Source: a phage. From it: 64,000 nt of DNA. This document shows positions 9,113 through 61,140 of this stretch, piece by piece. Within the stretch, counting starts at the first letter, position 1. Every line of letters begins with the position of its first letter. The DNA is taken from the sequence record PZ445517.1; one strand, written 5' to 3'. The notes beneath the pieces are model-generated. The model was not told the origin of the DNA, ran no database searches, and worked only from the letters and a program-made list of their open reading frames with translations. The translations under genes and the position numbers were made by a program.

Positions 9113-11290
9113 TTAGGCCGCAAGGGCCTTCATAGTTTTAGCGATTTGGGAAACTTCATCATCACTTAAAGAGTTGCGATAACCGATGAAGTCGGAAACA
9201 ATACGGAATTTCTTGGTAAACTCAGCAACCATTTTATCACTGTTTTTTGAAGCATTATTTGATAATACATCAAAAAGATTAGTTACTGTCCAGATGTCAT
9301 GACCGATAGTATCTTTTCCACCGTTGAAATATACACCCTGTAATGAACTAACCATATTAGCGAGTCGTGTATATTCTTCAGAAACTTCATCTACACTGAA
9401 GTACTTCATCATAAAATCTAGTTCAGGATACTTAATAATTTTATCAATATATCGTTTAGCTGAACTTGAATAACCTACATACTTATCATAATCTACATCA
9501 TCAAAAGCATCTACATATAAATCACGCAGAGTTTCAAAAATACATTGGCACTGACCAAGTTCTTTTACCTTTTTCTGCAAAAGCGGACGAATAACATAAA
9601 ATTCATTAATGCCAATAATATTAGCCATACGAGTCAAAATATTCGTAGATGGATGACAAAGCGATGTAGTACCATCCATAGAGAAAATATCAGAACGATG
9701 CATGTATGCTACATAACCAGTAATTTCATCTGCTTCTGATGTGAGCGTAAACAGTTCCTCTTTTTCCCAACGACCGTCTTTAATTTCAAACTTAAATGCA
9801 GTAGCAGCTTTAGGACGAGGAGCTTTACTTTTAACTGCCTTCGGAATATAACTTTTAACTAAATCTTCAATTTCTGACAAATAATGAATGTTAACTTCAT
9901 CACTTTCAAACATTGCCATAATATCAGGGAGTAAATCAATCTGCGATTCTACTTCCGGATTAATAAACAGAAGACGCTCATTGTGATGAATATTCAAAGT
10001 GTTATTAAATTCATTATCATCTAACGCACGTGCTAATCCACGGACAATATTAACACGATTTTTAATATTATCAATAACGATATTAATTTTTGTTGTGTTA
10101 ATACCAAACAGACGATAACTTGATGCAACGGCTGAAGTTTCATGGCTTTGCTTAATGCGTTTCAGTCGAGGGTCAAGATTTACTTCATACACAACTCCTG
10201 CATTGCATAACTTACTATCAGGTTCAAACATACTCTGCATCTTCTTATATGACAGATTTTTAGTCGTGAATTTGACTGAATTACTAATCATATAATCTCG
10301 AGCAGAATACCCCATCTTCATCAATTCACGATATGTGTGACGAGGAGATGTAGATTCTTTAAATCGTTTTACATCTTCATTGAATGCCTTCTCACTAAGC
10401 TCTTTAACACGCTCAATAATATTTTTACGAGTACGATCGTCCAGTGAAAGAGCCTCACGTGATGGAGCAATATCAAGTGAACCCATTGGAAACTTAATGT
10501 AATTCACTTCATTGCGGATGCTTAACCAGTTACGGTCTCTAATAACACCATCGATAGGATAAACAATACCACCATAGATAGCATATAATCCACCACGATC
10601 TGGCCAGTATCTTTCTGGATTTACACCGTAATAGTCATCAAAATCCGGAAAATAGTCAATTTCACGGTCAAGACCATTAATGATAGCCAAATCTTTGAAC
10701 GGCCGCATGATATAAGAAACTTCATAAGCAAAGTTTCTAAAGTCTTTTTCTTCAACTGGAACTACGATTTCAATACCAGTTTTATCATCTGGACCCATTT
10801 CTTTCACGAATGTAGGTTTAATTTGTGGACCATCGCCATCCATGTAAGCTACATAACCACGAATTTCACCTTTATGATACGAAGTAATACTAAATGTATC
10901 AGTATAACTAAACGGAGATTTAGAACCTAAACCAAATCCGCCAATGAAATCGTTAGATTCAGCCTTAGATGAACTGAAGTATGAATTATACAAACCAGGA
11001 GAATTATCATCACCCTGAATATCAAAATCACTCATACCCGGACCAAAATCTCGGCAAACAAATCGTGGATCTAAACGTCCAGGAACTTGAATGATAAATT
11101 TTTCAGGATTTCCATTGAGAGCATGGGCATCAATCATGTTGGTAATCAATTCACGGACTACTGCGCGAATTTTGTTTGTATACAAATCAGATGACAGAAT
11201 TTTAAATACTTTAGGATTTGCTGCGATGCTAAATGCTTTTGATTTAGAACCATTGCCAAGAATAGTTTCTTTTTCAGTGGTGATAATCAT
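9113..11290 (-). CDS. rIIA: rapid-lysis protein rIIA (GHKL-ATPase-like N-terminal domain)
   Basis: 725 aa, same length as T4 rIIA; N-terminus carries ...[10 protein letters not shown]... and GGFGLGSKS motifs. Confidence 0.85.
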
Positions 11291-54112: not shown

Positions 54113-54370
54113 TTATTCCTTAATTCCTAGTACTTGTTTAAAAGTCTCGTCATAATCAAGACTTTGGCCCGTTTGTTCTTTATGTTTGTATATAATATCA
54201 CTTACTTCTGATAGCATATTTTTATATGAACGAGTTAAAGCAGATTTAAGCACGCTGTATCTATCAGGAAATTTACCATGTTCATTATAATAAGCTATTG
54301 CTAATTCACGGACTGCCTTTTCAGCAGTCTCCATATATTCTTTACGCTTGGTCATTTTCTTCTCTGTCAA
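54113..54370 (-). CDS. hypothetical protein, 85 aa
   Basis: ORF. Confidence 0.4.
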
Positions 54371-54638
54371 ATCGGTGTTTACAATGACGACATTTATAAC
54401 GAAGATTACTAGTCTGCCAATGAACTAATTGTACCTGTTCAGTACCGCATTCAGGACAATTAGGAACGCTTTTAGAAGCCCTTTCGCGACGTTCAACCAT
54501 AGCCATAATGGCATCCCAAGCTGGAGGTTTAAAATCTAAATCGTCAGTAACTAGCAGTCCTTTATCAAACCCAGCGCATGGAGTCCATTCAGGAAAATCT
54601 GAAGCTTCGGCAATATCTTCTAATAAACGCTTTTTCAT
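54342..54638 (-). CDS. zinc-ribbon protein, 98 aa
   Basis: C-terminal CPECG ... CRHCKH four-cysteine motif. Confidence 0.4.
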
Positions 54639-55561
54639 TTCAGTACCTCAATAGCATCACGTAAACCATTTGCTTTGGCGGTTAAAGCCTTAATAACTTT
54701 AGTATGCTCTTCAATCTGTTTTTCAACTTCAATCAAACGGGCACTGAGATATTCGCGTTCTTCTTTCATAGTATCATTCCCATGATTGGGCTTTGGCGTA
54801 GATTTAAATTTACTAGGGTCCTTTAACTTAATAACAACTTTAGTTTCAAACAGTGAAAGACCATAATTTGTATTATCATCAAAGGATTCAACTACGTCCA
54901 TTTTAGATAATAACGTGCGAAGATTATAAGTCAAAGAACGAATCGTTTTATTATGTTTATTAGCTTCGCACGGTTTCATATATGGAAGATTTTTATATAT
55001 TTCATGCGGAGCACAAACAATAATTGACAATTCAAATGGTCCATTCTGTGATGATGGAATGAATTTAGCTGTAACCCAATCTTTTACATTTACATTAATA
55101 GTACGGTCATCGCCATGACAAAACAGTCTACGAGAATGCTTAAAAAGCATATTCACGTTATTATTAAATTCATGTGAAAACTCACTAGCAAATTTTTCTT
55201 TACTATTTTTAGAAAACCATTCTTCTAAATAAGTTCTTTTCACGTCATTAATAATATTAAATGTAACAACATTAGCATTTGATACATTAGTCTCAATGTA
55301 GCTTGGATACATAAATTTTTTAACATTATTAACAGCTATCACAGAAGATAGTAATCGGGAACGTTTGAACCACTCTAGCAAAGAACCAAGAGAATGTGAA
55401 TATGCATTTTGTGTATCTTTACAAATATGGTTTTCCCATCCAATATAGTCTAAAAAATCACGAAGAATATTATTGATTACTGCTCTGTGTCCAATCTGAT
55501 AACTACGGTGTTTAGTAATAAGACTGTCAAAATAATCAATATAATGTTTACGAGTTTTCAT
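54635..55561 (-). CDS. coiled-coil-tailed paralogue A, 308 aa
   Basis: shares FKRSRLLS-type motif with paralogue B; C-terminal 40-50 aa heptad-like, K/E/L-rich. Confidence 0.45.
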   Translation of the reverse strand: MKTRKHYIDYFDSLITKHRSYQIGHRAVINNILRDFLDYIGWENHICKDTQNAYSHSLGSLLEWFKRSRLLSSVIAVNNVKKFMYPSYIETNVSNANVVTFNIINDVKRTYLEEWFSKNSKEKFASEFSHEFNNNVNMLFKHSRRLFCHGDDRTINVNVKDWVTAKFIPSSQNGPFELSIIVCAPHEIYKNLPYMKPCEANKHNKTIRSLTYNLRTLLSKMDVVESFDDNTNYGLSLFETKVVIKLKDPSKFKSTPKPNHGNDTMKEEREYLSARLIEVEKQIEEHTKVIKALTAKANGLRDAIEVLK

Positions 55562-55613
55562 GTTCTTCTCACTTGGTTAATGATTTATGCTCCGAGCCAT
55601 CCTTGGCTTTAAA

Positions 55614-56615
55614 TTACTTAATTAACTGTAAAGCTTGTTCAAGACGATCCAGGCGATTAACAGATTCTTCCCAAATCTTTTTAGCCTGCTCATATTCTTT
55701 CTGCGCTTTATTAGAAATTTCTAGAACTTCTTTATAAGCTTTTTCTAATGCAATAACTTCTGGACGAATTTCTGCCGGTTCAGGCGAATCATCAAGATTA
55801 TCCATTAGTTCCTCAAGGGTAGTTTCTTCTTTAGGAGTATTCACAATTTCATCACATTTTTGTTGGTAAATTTCTTTATCAGTCGGTGAGTACGCACACT
55901 TTACTTCACGAAGACTAACTACAATTTTATATCCTTCCCAACCGCATATATTCTTAAAAGGATATGTATGAATATTTTCTACTGTTTCCATACAAAGTAA
56001 TGCAGTCTCTAACTGACGAGTTATAGTGCTAGCAATTGAGAAAAATTTATTAATATTCTTTTGGTTAGCGTTTGGTGTAAAAAATCCATAATTCACAAAA
56101 ATAGCTACTTTATTTTCATCAAGCTCATATTCTTTTACGATAATCATATCAGAAGCCAAAGGATGAATTTGACGATAATCGCCATAACATAATTTAGAAG
56201 CTGATTTTAGAATTTGTCCTTTGAAAAGTCTGAAATTACTAATCCAACGACGAGTAAAAATATTCTCAGGGTCTTCTTTATTATTAAGATGATAAGAATT
56301 AACATCACCGAACCAATTATATCCTACTACATCTTTGGTTCGTTTAATTTCTTTCCCAAAATTACCAAGAATATCCCGATTAACCAAATATGAAAGAAGA
56401 CGAGACTCTTTAAAAGTTTTCTTGATAACATCTTTATCTACACGGCTAGAAATTTTACGAATTTCATGAATAAATTTAGTAGAAGAAACAATACTTGCAT
56501 CAACACTATTGAGCCATTGATTGATAATAGAAAGAACGATATTTTGACCAAACATCGGTATAGCTTTATCATCAATAACGCTATTGAATGATTTGATATA
56601 TTCGTTACGAGTCAT
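55614..56615 (-). CDS. coiled-coil-tailed paralogue B, about 333 aa
   Basis: start at ATG 56613-56615 (GGAGA upstream, just downstream of an early promoter); FKESRLLS motif; C-terminal coiled coil ...RLDRLEQALQLIK. Confidence 0.45.
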   Translation of the reverse strand: MTRNEYIKSFNSVIDDKAIPMFGQNIVLSIINQWLNSVDASIVSSTKFIHEIRKISSRVDKDVIKKTFKESRLLSYLVNRDILGNFGKEIKRTKDVVGYNWFGDVNSYHLNNKEDPENIFTRRWISNFRLFKGQILKSASKLCYGDYRQIHPLASDMIIVKEYELDENKVAIFVNYGFFTPNANQKNINKFFSIASTITRQLETALLCMETVENIHTYPFKNICGWEGYKIVVSLREVKCAYSPTDKEIYQQKCDEIVNTPKEETTLEELMDNLDDSPEPAEIRPEVIALEKAYKEVLEISNKAQKEYEQAKKIWEESVNRLDRLEQALQLIK

Positions 56616-56643
56616 ATTAATCTCCTCATTAGAAAGTAAGAAC

Positions 56644-56673
56644 ATTATACCACATCCTTGTGGCGAAGTAAAC
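56644..56673 (-). promoter_or_regulatory. T4-type early promoter
   Basis: GTTTAC (56668-56673 rc), 18 nt, TGGTATAAT. Confidence 0.6.
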
Positions 56674-57698
56674 TAGTTTAGTGCATTTAGTGCATTGTTC
56701 AGTTTAGAACGTTGCTTTGTCAGATTTTGAACCCTTGACTGAGCTTGTTCTAACACCTTTTCAGCTTCTAGCACTTCATTGGTCGCTTTAACGAGTTCAT
56801 CATCTACTGCCTTAAGAGACTTCTCAATCGCGTCAGCGTGCCATTTTTCTACAGGTTTAAGACTCGGATTTTCAACAGGAAGAAAATTCACTTTATTGAA
56901 TTTCCATGCATCATTATTACCTGAACTATACATCCAAAATTTAGAATCGTTTGATGAGTAATTGGATAAATTTAAATTTAAATTATCTTGCACTTCTTGC
57001 TTTTTCTCTTGCGGGACTTCGTCCTTTCTCAAAAAATCGTATTTAAATGAAACGATCATATCAAGTTCATATGTTGTCGTATCTAACTTAAATCGTTCAA
57101 AACGAGGTAAAATCTTAGATTGAACAGCAGCAACAACATCCATATACTTAAATGCTTCTGTCAACTGTGATTTAAGGCATTCACAAATTGAAAGAGAATT
57201 TTTTGTATTAGGTTTAAAGCTAATTCGTGCAGTTCTATTATTTTCTTTTAACGGTCTTACTTCCATCTGAAGAGTATAACCATCAAATTTCAGATTCTTT
57301 AAGTTAATATCAGAACCTTTTAATCGACTAGCCGTAGACAAAATTTGCTTTAATTGTTTACGGAATAGAGCAATAAATCTCCATTCAAGACGATAATGAT
57401 TTGGATTAAAAAATCCTGTTGATAAATCAACCTTACTCTGACCAACGCCTTGAACAAATAGAGGATTTTTATAATCAATAGTTTTACAGAAATCGGTGAG
57501 CTGCTCACGAGCAGTCATTTGTGTAATATATCCCGCTTTACTAAAATGACGTAACCATTCACTGCTATTCATATACTTAAAGTGAATATCACGATTAACT
57601 TTATCAGGGTCTAAATTATTTTGGCACAAAAATGTCATAACATTACGTGTATAGCTAGCATTACGAACCATATCTTCAATTTGAGAACGAGTTTTCAT
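56673..57698 (-). CDS. coiled-coil-tailed paralogue C, 341 aa
   Basis: N-terminal MKTR... start and EWLRHFSK segment resemble paralogue A; C-terminal coiled coil. Confidence 0.45.
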   Translation of the reverse strand: MKTRSQIEDMVRNASYTRNVMTFLCQNNLDPDKVNRDIHFKYMNSSEWLRHFSKAGYITQMTAREQLTDFCKTIDYKNPLFVQGVGQSKVDLSTGFFNPNHYRLEWRFIALFRKQLKQILSTASRLKGSDINLKNLKFDGYTLQMEVRPLKENNRTARISFKPNTKNSLSICECLKSQLTEAFKYMDVVAAVQSKILPRFERFKLDTTTYELDMIVSFKYDFLRKDEVPQEKKQEVQDNLNLNLSNYSSNDSKFWMYSSGNNDAWKFNKVNFLPVENPSLKPVEKWHADAIEKSLKAVDDELVKATNEVLEAEKVLEQAQSRVQNLTKQRSKLNNALNALN

Positions 57699-57706
57699 GG
57701 TGTTCC

Positions 57707-58615
57707 TTAAGATTTAAGTAAATCAACAATTTTAATTAATTTTTCACGCTCAGATTTAGCTTTACTACTCAGTCCAGATAGTCTGAAAATTTCATCATCA
57801 TATTGCTGAATAGAAATATTCAGCTCTTCAATCTGCTTATTAAAATAATCAATTTGTTCAGAATGTTTTTCGTTACTACGAACTGGTACAGGTTTTGTAG
57901 GCAATTTAGTTGAACTGGATTCATCCGGGCGATAAATTAAAATACAACTTGAACCAATAGGGCATTTTGCACCAGATGAATATTCTAATGTTCCGGCTTC
58001 TTTTAAAACTTCAAAAGCTAAACAGAGATGATGACCCATATTGACATAATCTGTAGAGCGAGCTCTGATGTAATAATCATCTCCGCGAATACTAAATTTA
58101 AAGCATTTAAGGTCTTCTGTATTATTGGTCTTAAAAATCATTTGTTTATCTAGACCTTTAGCTAATCGAGCGCCTAATGCTAATAATCGTCGTTGATTTT
58201 CCCACAAATCCGCAATCATTTGATCAAATGATAATTTCGGCATTAGTCGACCATAAAGGTCGTATCCTTTATTATAATTGCGAAGGATTTCACTCGCATT
58301 AATACGAGACAATGCTCCAATTTTATTAAGGGCTTTCATGATGCGATTAGATAAACCCATTCCAGACCCGTTTGTTCGTTGTAAATGTTTATCTAATCCA
58401 AACCCAATATCAACTTTAAATTTATCTAAAATTTCAGCATGAACATCTCTGTCAATAACATTCAAATCCAAAGTTGGGTTAAATCTATGAAAAAATTTAT
58501 CTGGCTCTCCACGACGAAGTACAGTCCATTCATTCAATTTTTTATTAACTAAAGATTTAATTACTGCATTGACATTATTAATTACGACTGACATATTTTC
58601 CTCACTCAATTTCAA
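57707..58615 (-). CDS. coiled-coil-tailed protein D, 302 aa (possible fourth paralogue)
   Basis: similar size and C-terminal coiled coil; N-terminal similarity to A-C is weak. Confidence 0.4.
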   Translation of the reverse strand: MKLSEENMSVVINNVNAVIKSLVNKKLNEWTVLRRGEPDKFFHRFNPTLDLNVIDRDVHAEILDKFKVDIGFGLDKHLQRTNGSGMGLSNRIMKALNKIGALSRINASEILRNYNKGYDLYGRLMPKLSFDQMIADLWENQRRLLALGARLAKGLDKQMIFKTNNTEDLKCFKFSIRGDDYYIRARSTDYVNMGHHLCLAFEVLKEAGTLEYSSGAKCPIGSSCILIYRPDESSSTKLPTKPVPVRSNEKHSEQIDYFNKQIEELNISIQQYDDEIFRLSGLSSKAKSEREKLIKIVDLLKS

Positions 58616-58648: not shown

Positions 58649-59011
58649 CTATATAAGCACCACACACACAGATTGAACTAATACCATTCCAAAGAACCAA
58701 ACAATATTATCAAACAATGTCTGTTTTACGTCGAAAGGACGTAAACTTACAGTAATATTATCGCCTTTTTCTATTGATGAATACATCTCTGGGGAAATAT
58801 ATTCGCTAAATCTATAACCGTCATTGAGTTCATATACAGCAATAAACGATAAACTAGATCCCTTTCCTTGAGTTCCTGTAAGGGTATTAACTACAGTAAC
58901 ATCATAATCTTTATAATGCATATAATCATTAATTGCGTAATAACCATATGCAATTACTATACATAAACAACATATCAATAAATTCAATCTTTTAATTATC
59001 AACTGTTTCAT
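58649..59011 (-). CDS. hypothetical membrane protein, 120 aa
   Basis: N- and C-terminal hydrophobic segments. Confidence 0.4.
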   Translation of the reverse strand: MKQLIIKRLNLLICCLCIVIAYGYYAINDYMHYKDYDVTVVNTLTGTQGKGSSLSFIAVYELNDGYRFSEYISPEMYSSIEKGDNITVSLRPFDVKQTLFDNIVWFFGMVLVQSVCVVLI

Positions 59012-59066: not shown

Positions 59067-59594
59067 TTATGCGAGTACCGTCTTTAACCGTTCTTCAAAC
59101 TTCCGAAGAGTATTCTGGCGTTCAGCTCTTTGCTTTTTGTAAGTTTCAATACGCTCTGAAATGAGAGTGTATCGTTCATTTACTGATTCTTTCATAAAAT
59201 CAGGAATTTCACGAGAAGATTTAATCTCGTCAAATTTATCAATAACAGCTTGCTCTTCAGCAATTAAGTTATCATACATCAAAATATCTTTCTTGATGAA
59301 CTCAATATCTTCTTGAGTTACACGAGATAATTTAGATGCTTTATCCTTTTTGTACTGTTCATTAGTATCACGAGACCAGTGTAATGTACGATTTTTATTC
59401 GTATTTTTGTAAATTTCTACAATACCGATCTCATCAATAATAACGATCCAATTCCAACGAGATTTGTAAATTTGTCCTCCATCAACCGTGATTTCACCTC
59501 CGATTGAGATGTCATTAAAGAACTTGCTTTGTGCTTCAGATTTAAATTTACCATCATTGTAGTTTACCAAGTTGAAAATATCTTTAGCATTCAT
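59067..59594 (-). CDS. hypothetical protein, 175 aa
   Basis: start at ATG 59592-59594 with GGAGG upstream; track N-terminus is promoter read-through. Confidence 0.4.
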   Translation of the reverse strand: MNAKDIFNLVNYNDGKFKSEAQSKFFNDISIGGEITVDGGQIYKSRWNWIVIIDEIGIVEIYKNTNKNRTLHWSRDTNEQYKKDKASKLSRVTQEDIEFIKKDILMYDNLIAEEQAVIDKFDEIKSSREIPDFMKESVNERYTLISERIETYKKQRAERQNTLRKFEERLKTVLA

Positions 59595-59622: not shown

Positions 59623-59652
59623 ATAGTACCACAGAGGAACGGTCTTGTAAAC
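59623..59652 (-). promoter_or_regulatory. T4-type early promoter
   Basis: GTTTAC (59647-59652 rc), 18 nt, TACTAT; conserved cassette. Confidence 0.6.
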
Positions 59653-60058: not shown

Positions 60059-61027
60059 TTATTTCAGAAGAGTAACCTCAGCAATTTCTTCCCAACCATT
60101 TTTGTCGGTCATAATAAAGTCAGCAAGATAAAGAGCAGTACGCAGTGAAACATTGCGTAAACGATTAACATTGACTTTCATCCATGATAATGCTTTATAA
60201 GTTTCTTCATCAGAAAGACCGCGCTTTTGCATCATGTCAGTTGAAAGAATAACATCTTCAACCCTGACCATAATTTCTTCATTAGTGTGAACACCCAAAT
60301 CCAAATAAACCGAGCGGGACACTAATGCTTGTAAGTGTGGGGCAAGTTTAGTACCACGGTCTAATTCGCGGTCAATGTCAACGTTTGTGATAAAAACAAT
60401 CGTTCCTTTAAATTCAAACTCACGCTCAATGCCTTTTTCTTCTAAGTAAGAAGATGCAGTGCTCCAGCAGACTTTACGGGTCTCTCCAGTGTCCAGAGCA
60501 GCTTTCAGAAGATTAAGAATGTCCATATCAGAGAAAACATCCACATCATCAATCAAAAGGACAGAATTCTCTTCACGATTATTCCAAAGCTGCTCATAAA
60601 GACCAATACCAGAGATTTTACCATTAATGCTTTTATATTCAATGTATCCATTATCATTTGCTTTATTTAAAGCTTTATCTAAAGAATACGTTTTACCAAT
60701 ACCTGCTGCGCCAGAGATAATTAATGAACGAATATTTCCATTAATAATACCATTCGTCATCATTCCCATAACATTAAATCTTTTATTAATGCGGGTTTTC
60801 ATATCTTCATATGATTCTTTAACTTCTTCAACTTTTACACCATCATATGAAATATCTGATTTGTAAACCCAAACACCACGACGTTTACCGTCAATTTCAA
60901 CAAAAACTTTACCATCTCCTTGTGCATCTACCGGAGCATTATCTGGGAACCATTCGCCTAAGAGCTCAAAAGTTCCAGAGATTTCTTTACCGAAGTAGAT
61001 ACCCTTATTGATAGTTACAGTTTTCAT
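60059..61027 (-). CDS. P-loop NTPase (AAA+-like), 322 aa
   Basis: start at ATG 61025-61027 (GGAGA upstream); Walker A SGAAGIGKT, Walker B VLLIDDVD, sensor-1-like TIVFITN; own promoter and terminator. Confidence 0.6.
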   Translation of the reverse strand: MKTVTINKGIYFGKEISGTFELLGEWFPDNAPVDAQGDGKVFVEIDGKRRGVWVYKSDISYDGVKVEEVKESYEDMKTRINKRFNVMGMMTNGIINGNIRSLIISGAAGIGKTYSLDKALNKANDNGYIEYKSINGKISGIGLYEQLWNNREENSVLLIDDVDVFSDMDILNLLKAALDTGETRKVCWSTASSYLEEKGIEREFEFKGTIVFITNVDIDRELDRGTKLAPHLQALVSRSVYLDLGVHTNEEIMVRVEDVILSTDMMQKRGLSDEETYKALSWMKVNVNRLRNVSLRTALYLADFIMTDKNGWEEIAEVTLLK

Positions 61028-61061
61028 TTTATTCTCCAAATCTGTATCAGTTGATAGTTGT

Positions 61062-61091
61062 ATAGTACCATAAAGCTTTATGCTTGTAAAC
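61062..61091 (-). promoter_or_regulatory. T4-type early promoter
   Basis: GTTTAC (61086-61091 rc), 18 nt, TACTAT; conserved cassette. Confidence 0.6.
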
Positions 61092-61121
61092 AGTTTTGTG
61101 AAAAAATTTTGAAATAAAAAA

Positions 61122-61140
61122 GGGAGCCCGAAGGCTCCCT
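61122..61140 (-). terminator. intrinsic terminator downstream of the nucleotidyltransferase gene
   Basis: gggagcc-cgaa-ggctccc; minus strand hairpin followed by TTTTTTATTT. Confidence 0.65.

Follow-up and report, generated by a model that had tools for sequence, protein, structure and literature searches.

The window analyzed here (the whole stretch of 64,000 nucleotides from phage sequence record PZ445517.1) carries four consecutive minus-strand open reading frames (ORFs) at positions 54635 to 58615 that correspond to nrdC.3, nrdC.4, nrdC.5, and nrdC.6 in T4 nomenclature. The sequence-only reading that preceded this analysis had noted four same-strand genes here, and these ORFs were confirmed. 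They belong to a family with a common ancestry and architecture, a conserved position, fast divergence, and a copy number that varies among phages. The explanation that we favor, with a probability of roughly 0.58, is that the array encodes early-expressed counter-defence proteins in which the tail oligomerizes and the variable N-terminal body binds an immune sensor. T4 is the reference phage, and most of its dispensable early genes are without an assigned role.

The functional evidence comes from nrdC.5. A T4 clone with deletions failed on ECOR17 owing to the sirtuin defence gene dsr1, and T4 nrdC.5, supplied alone from a plasmid, allowed the deletion phage to plate again on an MG1655 strain with ECOR17 dsr1 (Srikant, Guegler and Laub, eLife 2022; PMC9391042). 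The region containing nrdC.5 can be deleted in T4, and the study provides a genetic rescue only, without mechanism or family analysis (PMC9391042). The nrdC.5 of the window is the orthologue of the tested protein, being 95.0% identical to NrdC.5 of AF158101 and found at the same position. Thus, the statement in the sequence-only reading that the function is unknown is out of date for nrdC.5, and its suggestion of host-factor binders fits the published counteraction of Dsr1, although physical binding is a step that we infer. A 2026 preprint reports that the major capsid protein of the phage triggers the Dsr1 NADase via a TPR sensor that is common to Avs7 and to proteins with other effectors, and that tail terminators, tail tubes, and additional structural folds are recognized by other Avs families.

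Pairwise BLASTP among the four proteins gave a significant match only for nrdC.3 and nrdC.4 (E value, 6e-4). Family profiles were therefore built from database homologues plus divergent loci and compared by hhalign, which connects nrdC.3 to nrdC.4 with a probability of 97.8% (E value, 1e-12) and nrdC.4 to nrdC.5 with a probability of 93.2% (E value, 3e-7), the latter in an alignment of 246 collinear columns that still reaches 86% without the tails. Controls with reversed targets, which retain both composition and heptad periodicity, had probabilities of ≤0.8% throughout (≤0.3% for the comparisons among nrdC.3, nrdC.4, and nrdC.5), so the similarity is beyond chance. The motifs quoted in the sequence-only reading, WFKRSRLLSS (nrdC.3), TFKESRLLSY (nrdC.4), and EWLRHFSKAGY (nrdC.5), are present and share alignment columns. 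From these profile comparisons, we have very high confidence that nrdC.3, nrdC.4, and nrdC.5 are homologous and descend from one ancestor. The claim of at least three divergent paralogues in the sequence-only reading appears to extend to all four genes, by profiles for these three and by predicted fold and intermediate sequences for nrdC.6.

Pfam has three families and PHROGs has three groups (1435, 2351, and 2257) at the family level, which are joined here as one fold superfamily. PF26897 (Phage_T4_Y04OP) covers nrdC.3 and nrdC.4 as one family and is the precomputed assignment of all nrdC.4 homologues, and PF26899 (Phage_T4_Y05B) covers nrdC.6 and is carried by 105/105 of its homologues. Likewise, phrog_1435 is common to nrdC.3 and nrdC.4 and is not matched by nrdC.5 or nrdC.6. 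The nrdC.5 protein matches PF23882 (DUF7235) over its full length at 402.8 bits, against a gathering score of 30 bits, whereas nrdC.3 reaches only 11.1 bits (E value, 0.26) in the same scan, via its tail, and nrdC.4 and nrdC.6 have no match. T4 NrdC.5 (Y05A; DUF7235) is thus the direct counterpart of the nrdC.5 in the window and a sequence homologue of nrdC.3 and nrdC.4, and it is probably related to nrdC.6 through structure and intermediates, with only ~10 to 25% identity to these three proteins. An exhaustive HMMER search with the combined nrdC.3 and nrdC.4 profile found 10 proteins only, including the F48-type intermediate described below (E value, 2.6e-4), and reached no nrdC.5 or nrdC.6 members directly.

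The position of nrdC.6 depends upon intermediates from Klebsiella and Enterobacter phages. A protein of the Klebsiella phage F48 (Marfavirus; 315 amino acids [aa]) matches the nrdC.4 body at 95% and the nrdC.5 tail at 94% (E value, 1e-7) in profile comparisons. The Kanagawavirus K family (335 aa) matches this F48 protein at 96.8% and, in collinear segments, matches nrdC.6 at both the tail (89%; E value, 2e-6) and a core helix (50%; E value, 1.6e-4), thus joining nrdC.6 to F48 and hence to nrdC.4, with negative reversed controls. Direct comparison of nrdC.6 with nrdC.3, nrdC.4, and nrdC.5 by hhalign is not significant (probability, 1.4 to 6%, below 7% in every case), but the statistically weak alignment of nrdC.4 with nrdC.6 is collinear over 156 columns and places three conserved motifs in equivalent helices. 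The proteins of ~257 aa and 140 aa encoded upstream in F48 and IME523 were considered as further members and rejected, as was Acj61 p118; none has any similarity to the family.

Predicted structures point in the same direction. The AlphaFold2 models of nrdC.4 and nrdC.6 (mean predicted local distance difference test [pLDDT] scores of 82.8 and 74.4, respectively) have the same order of elements: a helical bundle, a long helix, a beta-hairpin, a helix, a second beta-hairpin, a linker, and the tail. Foldseek searches of viral models with the nrdC.4 model found an nrdC.3-type protein of phage fPS-65 (E value, 1e-8) and the NrdC.6 of JS10 (E value, 1.3e-5; probability, 1.00). In addition, the nrdC.4 and nrdC.6 models match the same proteins of ~300 to 335 aa from phages PM2 (Pectobacterium), IME523 (Enterobacter), Acj61, and Acj9 (both Acinetobacter), at full length and with E values of 5e-8 to 5e-5 and a probability of 1.00. 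Because of the fold search, the order of secondary structure elements, and the intermediate sequences, nrdC.6 is placed in the family, and we have good confidence that it derives from the same ancestor as nrdC.3 to nrdC.5. Alternatively, nrdC.6 could have no relationship to the other three and have gained its similar tail by convergence or domain shuffling, which would leave a three-member family and a neighbor. The nonsignificant direct comparison, the failure of a tail profile to recover the nrdC.6 tail (see below), and the example of nrdC.8, which shows that a similar K/E-rich tail is possible at this locus without detectable homology, are in keeping with this alternative. Given the match to JS10 NrdC.6, the four intermediates common to both models, the identical order of elements, the bridge through the K family, and the collinear alignment, we consider it very unlikely.

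All four C termini contain one uninterrupted heptad register of 47 to 56 residues, with 30 to 40% charged residues and no internal proline, in agreement with the heptad-like tails described in the sequence-only reading. The window has 65 minus-strand ORFs of ≥100 aa, of which nrdC.3 to nrdC.6 and nrdC.8 occupy ranks 1 to 5 for the heptad score of the last 60 residues, which is a crude measure of our own and not COILS or MARCOIL. AlphaFold2 predicts the nrdC.4 tail as a single 48-residue helix (residues 285 to 332) preceded by a disordered linker (residues 274 to 281) and the nrdC.6 tail as two helices (residues 245 to 273 and 277 to 294), also preceded by a disordered linker. The heptad pattern and these predicted helices suggest putative coiled coils that would mediate oligomerization.

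When orthologues are compared between genera, the tail is the best-conserved region in every group, which upholds the earlier description of these tails as conserved. In distant nrdC.4 orthologues, the identity of the tail is 0.61, versus 0.39 to 0.49 in the N-terminal and core domains. The tail of nrdC.6 is likewise its most conserved region, with an identity of 0.63 between genera and 6 polymorphic sites of 52 within Tequatrovirus. Variation is greatest in the helical domain at the N terminus and, in nrdC.5, in an insert at residues 216 to 285. A common tail module defined from sequence alone was rejected, however, since a leave-one-family-out hidden Markov model (HMM) of the tails recovered only the nrdC.5 tail (E value, 5e-5). 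The claim of a shared tail therefore rests on the intermediates and the fold. The product of nrdC.8 (59067 to 59594, minus strand; 175 aa) also has a K/E-rich helical C-terminal tail, with a heptad-score rank of 4 of 65. It was rejected as a fifth member on the basis of a profile probability of <2% to every family, a negative tail HMM result, a weaker heptad (9/14), and the absence of the shared terminal spacing. The nrdC.8 protein is itself well conserved, with 67 to 83% identity between genera.

The fold comparisons also bear on what the core might do. The Foldseek list for the nrdC.4 model includes a tail terminator from BFVD, with a weak E value of 0.11, and the closest neighbors of this model in the PDB are structural proteins and small helical bundles. 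At most, the predicted core weakly resembles phage tail terminators, with scores at the level of a generic fold resemblance. No Pfam or PHROG profile for the tail terminator family matches any of the four proteins, and PDB sequence searches returned nothing relevant and no solved structure for any of nrdC.3 to nrdC.6. A match of the combined nrdC.3 and nrdC.4 profile to designed helical repeat proteins (E value, 5e-6) is confined to the helical N terminus (positions 12 to 71) and was treated as compositional.

One alternative is that the proteins are decoys of structural proteins, with a core that mimics the tail terminator or tail completion fold and occupies the shape-recognizing sensor of an immune receptor without activating it while the coiled coil stops receptor assembly. 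The weak tail terminator match and the account in the preprint of TPR-type sensors that wrap around tail terminators (in the case of Avs15) and around other structural folds would be consistent with such a role. However, sequence profiles provide no link to any tail terminator family, the structural comparison with the PDB used the predicted model of nrdC.4 only, and the one known target, Dsr1, reportedly senses the capsid protein rather than a tail terminator, so that the decoy explanation is improbable. A broader version, which we regard as unlikely, is that the array is an "anti-sensor" battery with a fold derived from the virion, whose oligomerized tail-terminator-like mimics plug TPR-type sensors (Dsr1/Avs7-type, Avs15-type, and others). 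Each paralogue would then blind a different pattern-recognition protein before the genuine late structural proteins appear, and, if this were true, one gene family would blind several unrelated defences that have a common sensor logic.

The proteins might instead be enzymes that repair the damage caused by a defence system, by rebuilding NAD+ or modifying metabolites, rather than binders of the defence protein. NAD+ reconstitution pathways have been described in other phages as a counter to systems that deplete NAD+, DSR1 among them. In the case of nrdC.3 to nrdC.6, no enzyme family is matched in Pfam, NCBIfam, PADLOC, or PDB sequences beyond the proteins' own family models, and the matches seen in NCBIfam and PADLOC are below threshold and driven by the tail (e.g., BrxC; E value, 0.001). 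Furthermore, the alignment of nrdC.3 and nrdC.4 has few invariant columns and no recognizable catalytic motif, the best structural neighbors are those given above, and a variable body joined to a coiled coil is a typical design for binding proteins. An enzymatic role thus seems extremely unlikely.

The family adjoins nrdC across T4-like phages, and different genera retain different copies. Among 50,697 phage records, nrdC.3 is carried by 654, nrdC.4 by 554, nrdC.5 by 536, and nrdC.6 by 742, all of them from T-even-like phages of enterobacteria, and the four genes are intact in most of the records that carry them. The Tequatrovirus array has the order nrdC.6-nrdC.5-nrdC.4-nrdC.3, Dhakavirus-like loci have nrdC.6-nrdC.5-nrdC.4 and lack nrdC.3, and the RB69 locus has nrdC.6-nrdC.5-nrdC.3 and lacks nrdC.4. 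The loci of Marfavirus F48 and Kanagawavirus IME523 have one detectable copy each. In Acinetobacter phage Acj61, a tandem pair with the same architecture lies beside nrdC, but its sequences have no detectable similarity to those of the T4 proteins. The possibility that nrdC.3 is specific to Tequatrovirus was rejected, because RB69 and Mosigvirus-type phages hold a copy that is 55 to 57% identical; overall, nrdC.3 falls into three allele classes, with identities of ≥90%, ~61%, and ~55%.

Several rearranged variants of these genes were also found. In an otherwise intact Tequatrovirus array (L005, 11950 to 12982), nrdC.4 is broken into ORFs of 193 and 158 aa by an apparent frameshift. In two metagenome contigs (L021, 3570 to 4900; L022, 1931 to 3261), nrdC.5 is cut to a 115-aa fragment and nrdC.4 is deleted, and a 299-aa protein (P0120) fuses residues 146 to 270 of nrdC.5 to residues 136 to 308 of nrdC.3, with the junction at nonhomologous positions that have a "VN" microhomology. 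In RB69 (L024, AY303349; 4400 to 5480, minus strand), the annotated nrdC.5 (300 aa) has a nonhelical end, and the expected heptad tail (...DKAQAKLRDAQSVVTNLQLQYSKLFNAMNALKS) is found in another frame just downstream, which reflects either a genuine frameshift or a mistake in the sequence as determined in 2003. The nrdC.6 homologue of Shigella phage Sf25 (P0122; 378 aa) has an internal tandem duplication of ~83 residues that reaches from the latter half of the core up to where the tail begins, such that IRAHSTDYVNMG...NKQIEEL is present twice. The Acj61 locus (L016, 11229 to 13938) contains, besides its pair of nrdC.4- and nrdC.6-like genes, adjacent genes for a nicotinamide phosphoribosyltransferase and a ribose-phosphate pyrophosphokinase, which look like an NAD+ reconstitution pathway.

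The four genes diverge much faster than their neighbors. The identity between genera is 27 to 31% for nrdC.5 and 44 to 52% for nrdC.4 and nrdC.6, compared with 80 to 87% for nrdC, 79% for nrdC.10, and 67 to 70% for nrdC.8. Among close relatives, the ratio of nonsynonymous to synonymous substitution rates (dN/dS) is 0.22 to 0.29 for nrdC.3, nrdC.4, and nrdC.5 and 0.07 for nrdC.6, while nrdC, nrdC.8, nrdC.9, and nrdC.10 have values of 0.01 to 0.06 (0.03 for nrdC.8). Checks of copy number and divergence across relatives, which the sequence-only reading had called for, thus gave a positive outcome, but its expectation of a locus under diversifying selection was not borne out; gene-wide dN/dS is elevated yet far below 1, and positive selection is therefore not demonstrated. 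The fast divergence, the allele classes, the conserved tails versus variable N termini, and the fusions, frameshifts, and deletions can be read as the signature of an arms race.

These same data fit, to some extent, an explanation in which only nrdC.5 acts in counter-defence and the other three genes either have roles outside immunity, for instance in some other form of host takeover, or are surplus duplicates that are slowly decaying within a hyperplastic region. Functional data exist for nrdC.5 only, and loss, fusion, and frameshift are frequent, as seen in the split nrdC.4 of L005, the nrdC.5::nrdC.3 fusion, the out-of-frame tail of RB69 nrdC.5, and the genomes without nrdC.4 (RB69) or nrdC.3 (Dhakavirus-like phages); a dN/dS of 0.2 to 0.3 also fits relaxed constraint. 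However, the genes remain intact in most of the ~540 to 740 records carrying each of them, nrdC.6 is under strong purifying selection, the tails are conserved, and related tandem pairs persist at the locus in phages as distant as those of Acinetobacter. Differential retention combined with deeply diverged alleles is, moreover, usual for host-range and anti-defence genes. On balance, an explanation limited to nrdC.5 appears rather doubtful.

In the counter-defence explanation that we favor, one ancestral gene, long resident beside nrdC in T4-like phages, gave rise to four diverged copies that are built alike: a variable helical bundle at the N terminus is followed by an alpha/beta core, then by a disordered linker, and lastly by a conserved heptad helix of ~50 residues. 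These proteins, which would be dispensable and expressed early, may assemble into oligomers through their tails, while the N-terminal body, which evolves fast, would attach to a bacterial immune protein and block it, such that the block is established before the late structural proteins that trigger the sensors appear. The target of nrdC.5 would be the Dsr1 NADase, and nrdC.3, nrdC.4, and nrdC.6 could cover other Dsr1 variants or other sensors. We propose that different genera keep different subsets because the copies would cover different sensors. This analysis makes nrdC.3, nrdC.4, and nrdC.6 good candidates for blocking other bacterial defences.

Several points weigh against this explanation. 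Direct binding of Dsr1, oligomerization via the tails, and an anti-defence role for nrdC.3, nrdC.4, and nrdC.6 are all steps that we infer, and nothing published on these three genes was found in the literature searched. The data on the Dsr1 trigger come from a preprint and from Drexlerviridae phages rather than T4. The dN/dS is <1 everywhere, with fairly strong purifying selection on nrdC.6, and the rates of nrdC.3, nrdC.4, and nrdC.5 could be explained by relaxed constraint. The tail HMM recovered only one of the tails, as noted above. For nrdC.6, the direct profile comparisons fall short of significance, and its probable membership depends upon short matches to intermediates and upon predicted structures with moderate TM-scores (0.37 to 0.51).

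With regard to what was already known, the gene annotations, the function of nrdC.5 against Dsr1, and the Pfam merger of nrdC.3 with nrdC.4 (PF26897) all precede this work. On the mechanism of nrdC.5 or on the other three genes, only the 2022 study of Srikant et al. was found, and neither the EVADES catalogue preprint nor the DruSM1 knockout screen includes nrdC.3 to nrdC.6. The four-way relationship uniting three Pfam/PHROG families, including nrdC.6, and the weak resemblance of the core to tail terminators are modestly new. The spread of the superfamily in T4-like phages, the partition of the proteins between variable body and conserved tail, and three candidate anti-defence genes are also added. 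The overall gain is incremental. If one scaffold recurs beside nrdC in phages of Escherichia, Klebsiella, Enterobacter, Pectobacterium, Acinetobacter, and Aeromonas, it would represent a family of candidate immune antagonists and would offer three ready T4 genes to screen against collections of defence systems. The split between conserved tail and variable body suggests a route for swapping target specificity, which is relevant to the prediction and engineering of host range in therapeutic T-even phages.

Comparable systems are known. DSAD1, the inhibitor of DSR2 from an SPbeta phage, likewise neutralizes a SIR2-domain NADase that is activated by a phage structural protein and is described as a direct binder; it comes from a different phage group, has a different target, and is likened here by mode of action only. 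Tail terminator and completion proteins (lambda gpU, T5 p142, SPP1 gp17-like, and DUF3168) have no sequence similarity to nrdC.3 to nrdC.6, which are encoded in the early region rather than the tail module and carry two additional parts, a helical domain at the N terminus and a predicted coiled-coil tail. The four proteins are thus not members of the tail terminator family. The dmd-tifA-adfA "anti-TA island" and ipI-ipIII are likewise clusters of dispensable early host-range genes that are variable and prone to deletion (PMC9391042). By their names and targets, these clusters appear to consist of unrelated genes, whereas nrdC.3 to nrdC.6 are a tandem expansion of one fold and have in common a tail of the oligomerization type.

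The coordinates of the genes and their tails are given in Table 1.

Table 1. Genes of the nrdC.3 to nrdC.6 array, their C-terminal heptad tails, and a promoter-like site within the array
Feature	Position in window	Strand	Description
nrdC.3	54635..55561	-	308 aa; UniProt-style name Y04O; phrog_1435, E value 3e-100
nrdC.3 tail	54638..54778	-	Residues 262-308; 11/14 a/d positions hydrophobic; heptad-score rank 3/65
nrdC.4	55614..56615	-	333 aa; phrog_1435, E value 4e-169
nrdC.4 tail	55617..55763	-	Residues 285-333; 12/14 a/d positions hydrophobic
Promoter-like site, T4 early type	56644..56672	-	nrdC.5-nrdC.4 spacer; TTTACT, 17 nt, TG-extended TATAAT
nrdC.5	56673..57698	-	341 aa; Pfam DUF7235 (PF23882), E value 1.4e-120; T4 orthologue is the published anti-Dsr1 gene
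nrdC.5 tail	56676..56843	-	Residues 286-341; 15/16 a/d positions hydrophobic
nrdC.6	57707..58594	-	295 aa from ATG; phrog_2257, E value 5e-153
nrdC.6 tail	57710..57865	-	Residues 244-295; 12/15 a/d positions hydrophobic

Two of the genes have alternative starts. For nrdC.4, the first ATG at 56645 would give a protein of 343 aa (ORF 55614 to 56645), but the 333-aa form starting at the ATG at 56615 is the likely one because of the start of the PHROG profile, the annotations of PP01 and T4, and the promoter-like site that overlaps the upstream ATG. For nrdC.6, initiation at the TTG at 58615 would produce 302 aa (ORF 57707 to 58615), but the family profile begins at the downstream ATG (58594), and the true length is therefore likely 295 aa. 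The promoter-like site in the spacer has 10/12 matches to the consensus plus the TG extension, as a consensus match only; in the consensus scan, such sites were not enriched across the region (44 found versus 35 ± 6 in shuffled sequence).

The array lies between nrdC.2/nrdC and nrdC.7 to nrdC.11, within the early nrdC-mobD region. A 5.1-kb stretch of the window around it is 100% identical to Escherichia phage T4_ev240 (LR597657) and 95 to 97% identical to many Tequatrovirus genomes. Compared with reference T4 (AF158101), NrdC.3, NrdC.4, and NrdC.6 are 95.8%, 96.1%, and 93.8% identical, respectively. At 94 to 96% protein identity, the window represents a T4 derivative at this locus rather than canonical T4. 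The nrdC.6 of the window is also 100% identical to that of RB18, which suggests that T4_ev240 arose by recombination of T-even phages in the nrdC.3 to nrdC.6 region.

The small genes around the array vary as well. The most variable of these is nrdC.2 (54342 to 54638, minus strand), with 63 to 96% identity within Tequatrovirus and a dN/dS of 0.31, and it has alternative C termini, with 98 aa in the window, 104 aa in reference T4 (70% identical), and 122 to 129 aa in other relatives. The gene for a small membrane protein, nrdC.7 (58649 to 59011, minus strand), shifts in position around the array; it is upstream of nrdC.6 in Tequatrovirus and adjoins nrdC in RB69 (L024, 2786 to 3199). Dhakavirus-like loci (L006 to L011 and L013, ~10670 to 11050) have a different 71-aa transmembrane ORF between nrdC.6 and nrdC.5. 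The product of nrdC.10 (60059 to 61039, minus strand; 326 aa) has weak matches below threshold to P-loop/AAA/STAND-type nucleoside triphosphatases (nSTAND3, E value of 1e-4; AAA_16, E value of 2e-4). Early-type promoter-like sites with TTTACA, a 17-nt spacer, and a TG-extended TACTAT are also found upstream of nrdC.10 (61062 to 61090, minus strand) and nrdC.8 (59623 to 59651, minus strand). Between nrdC.11 and nrdC.10, a strong G+C-rich hairpin followed by a T-run is present at 61121 to 61140 (both strands), with an 8-bp stem that includes 6 GC pairs.

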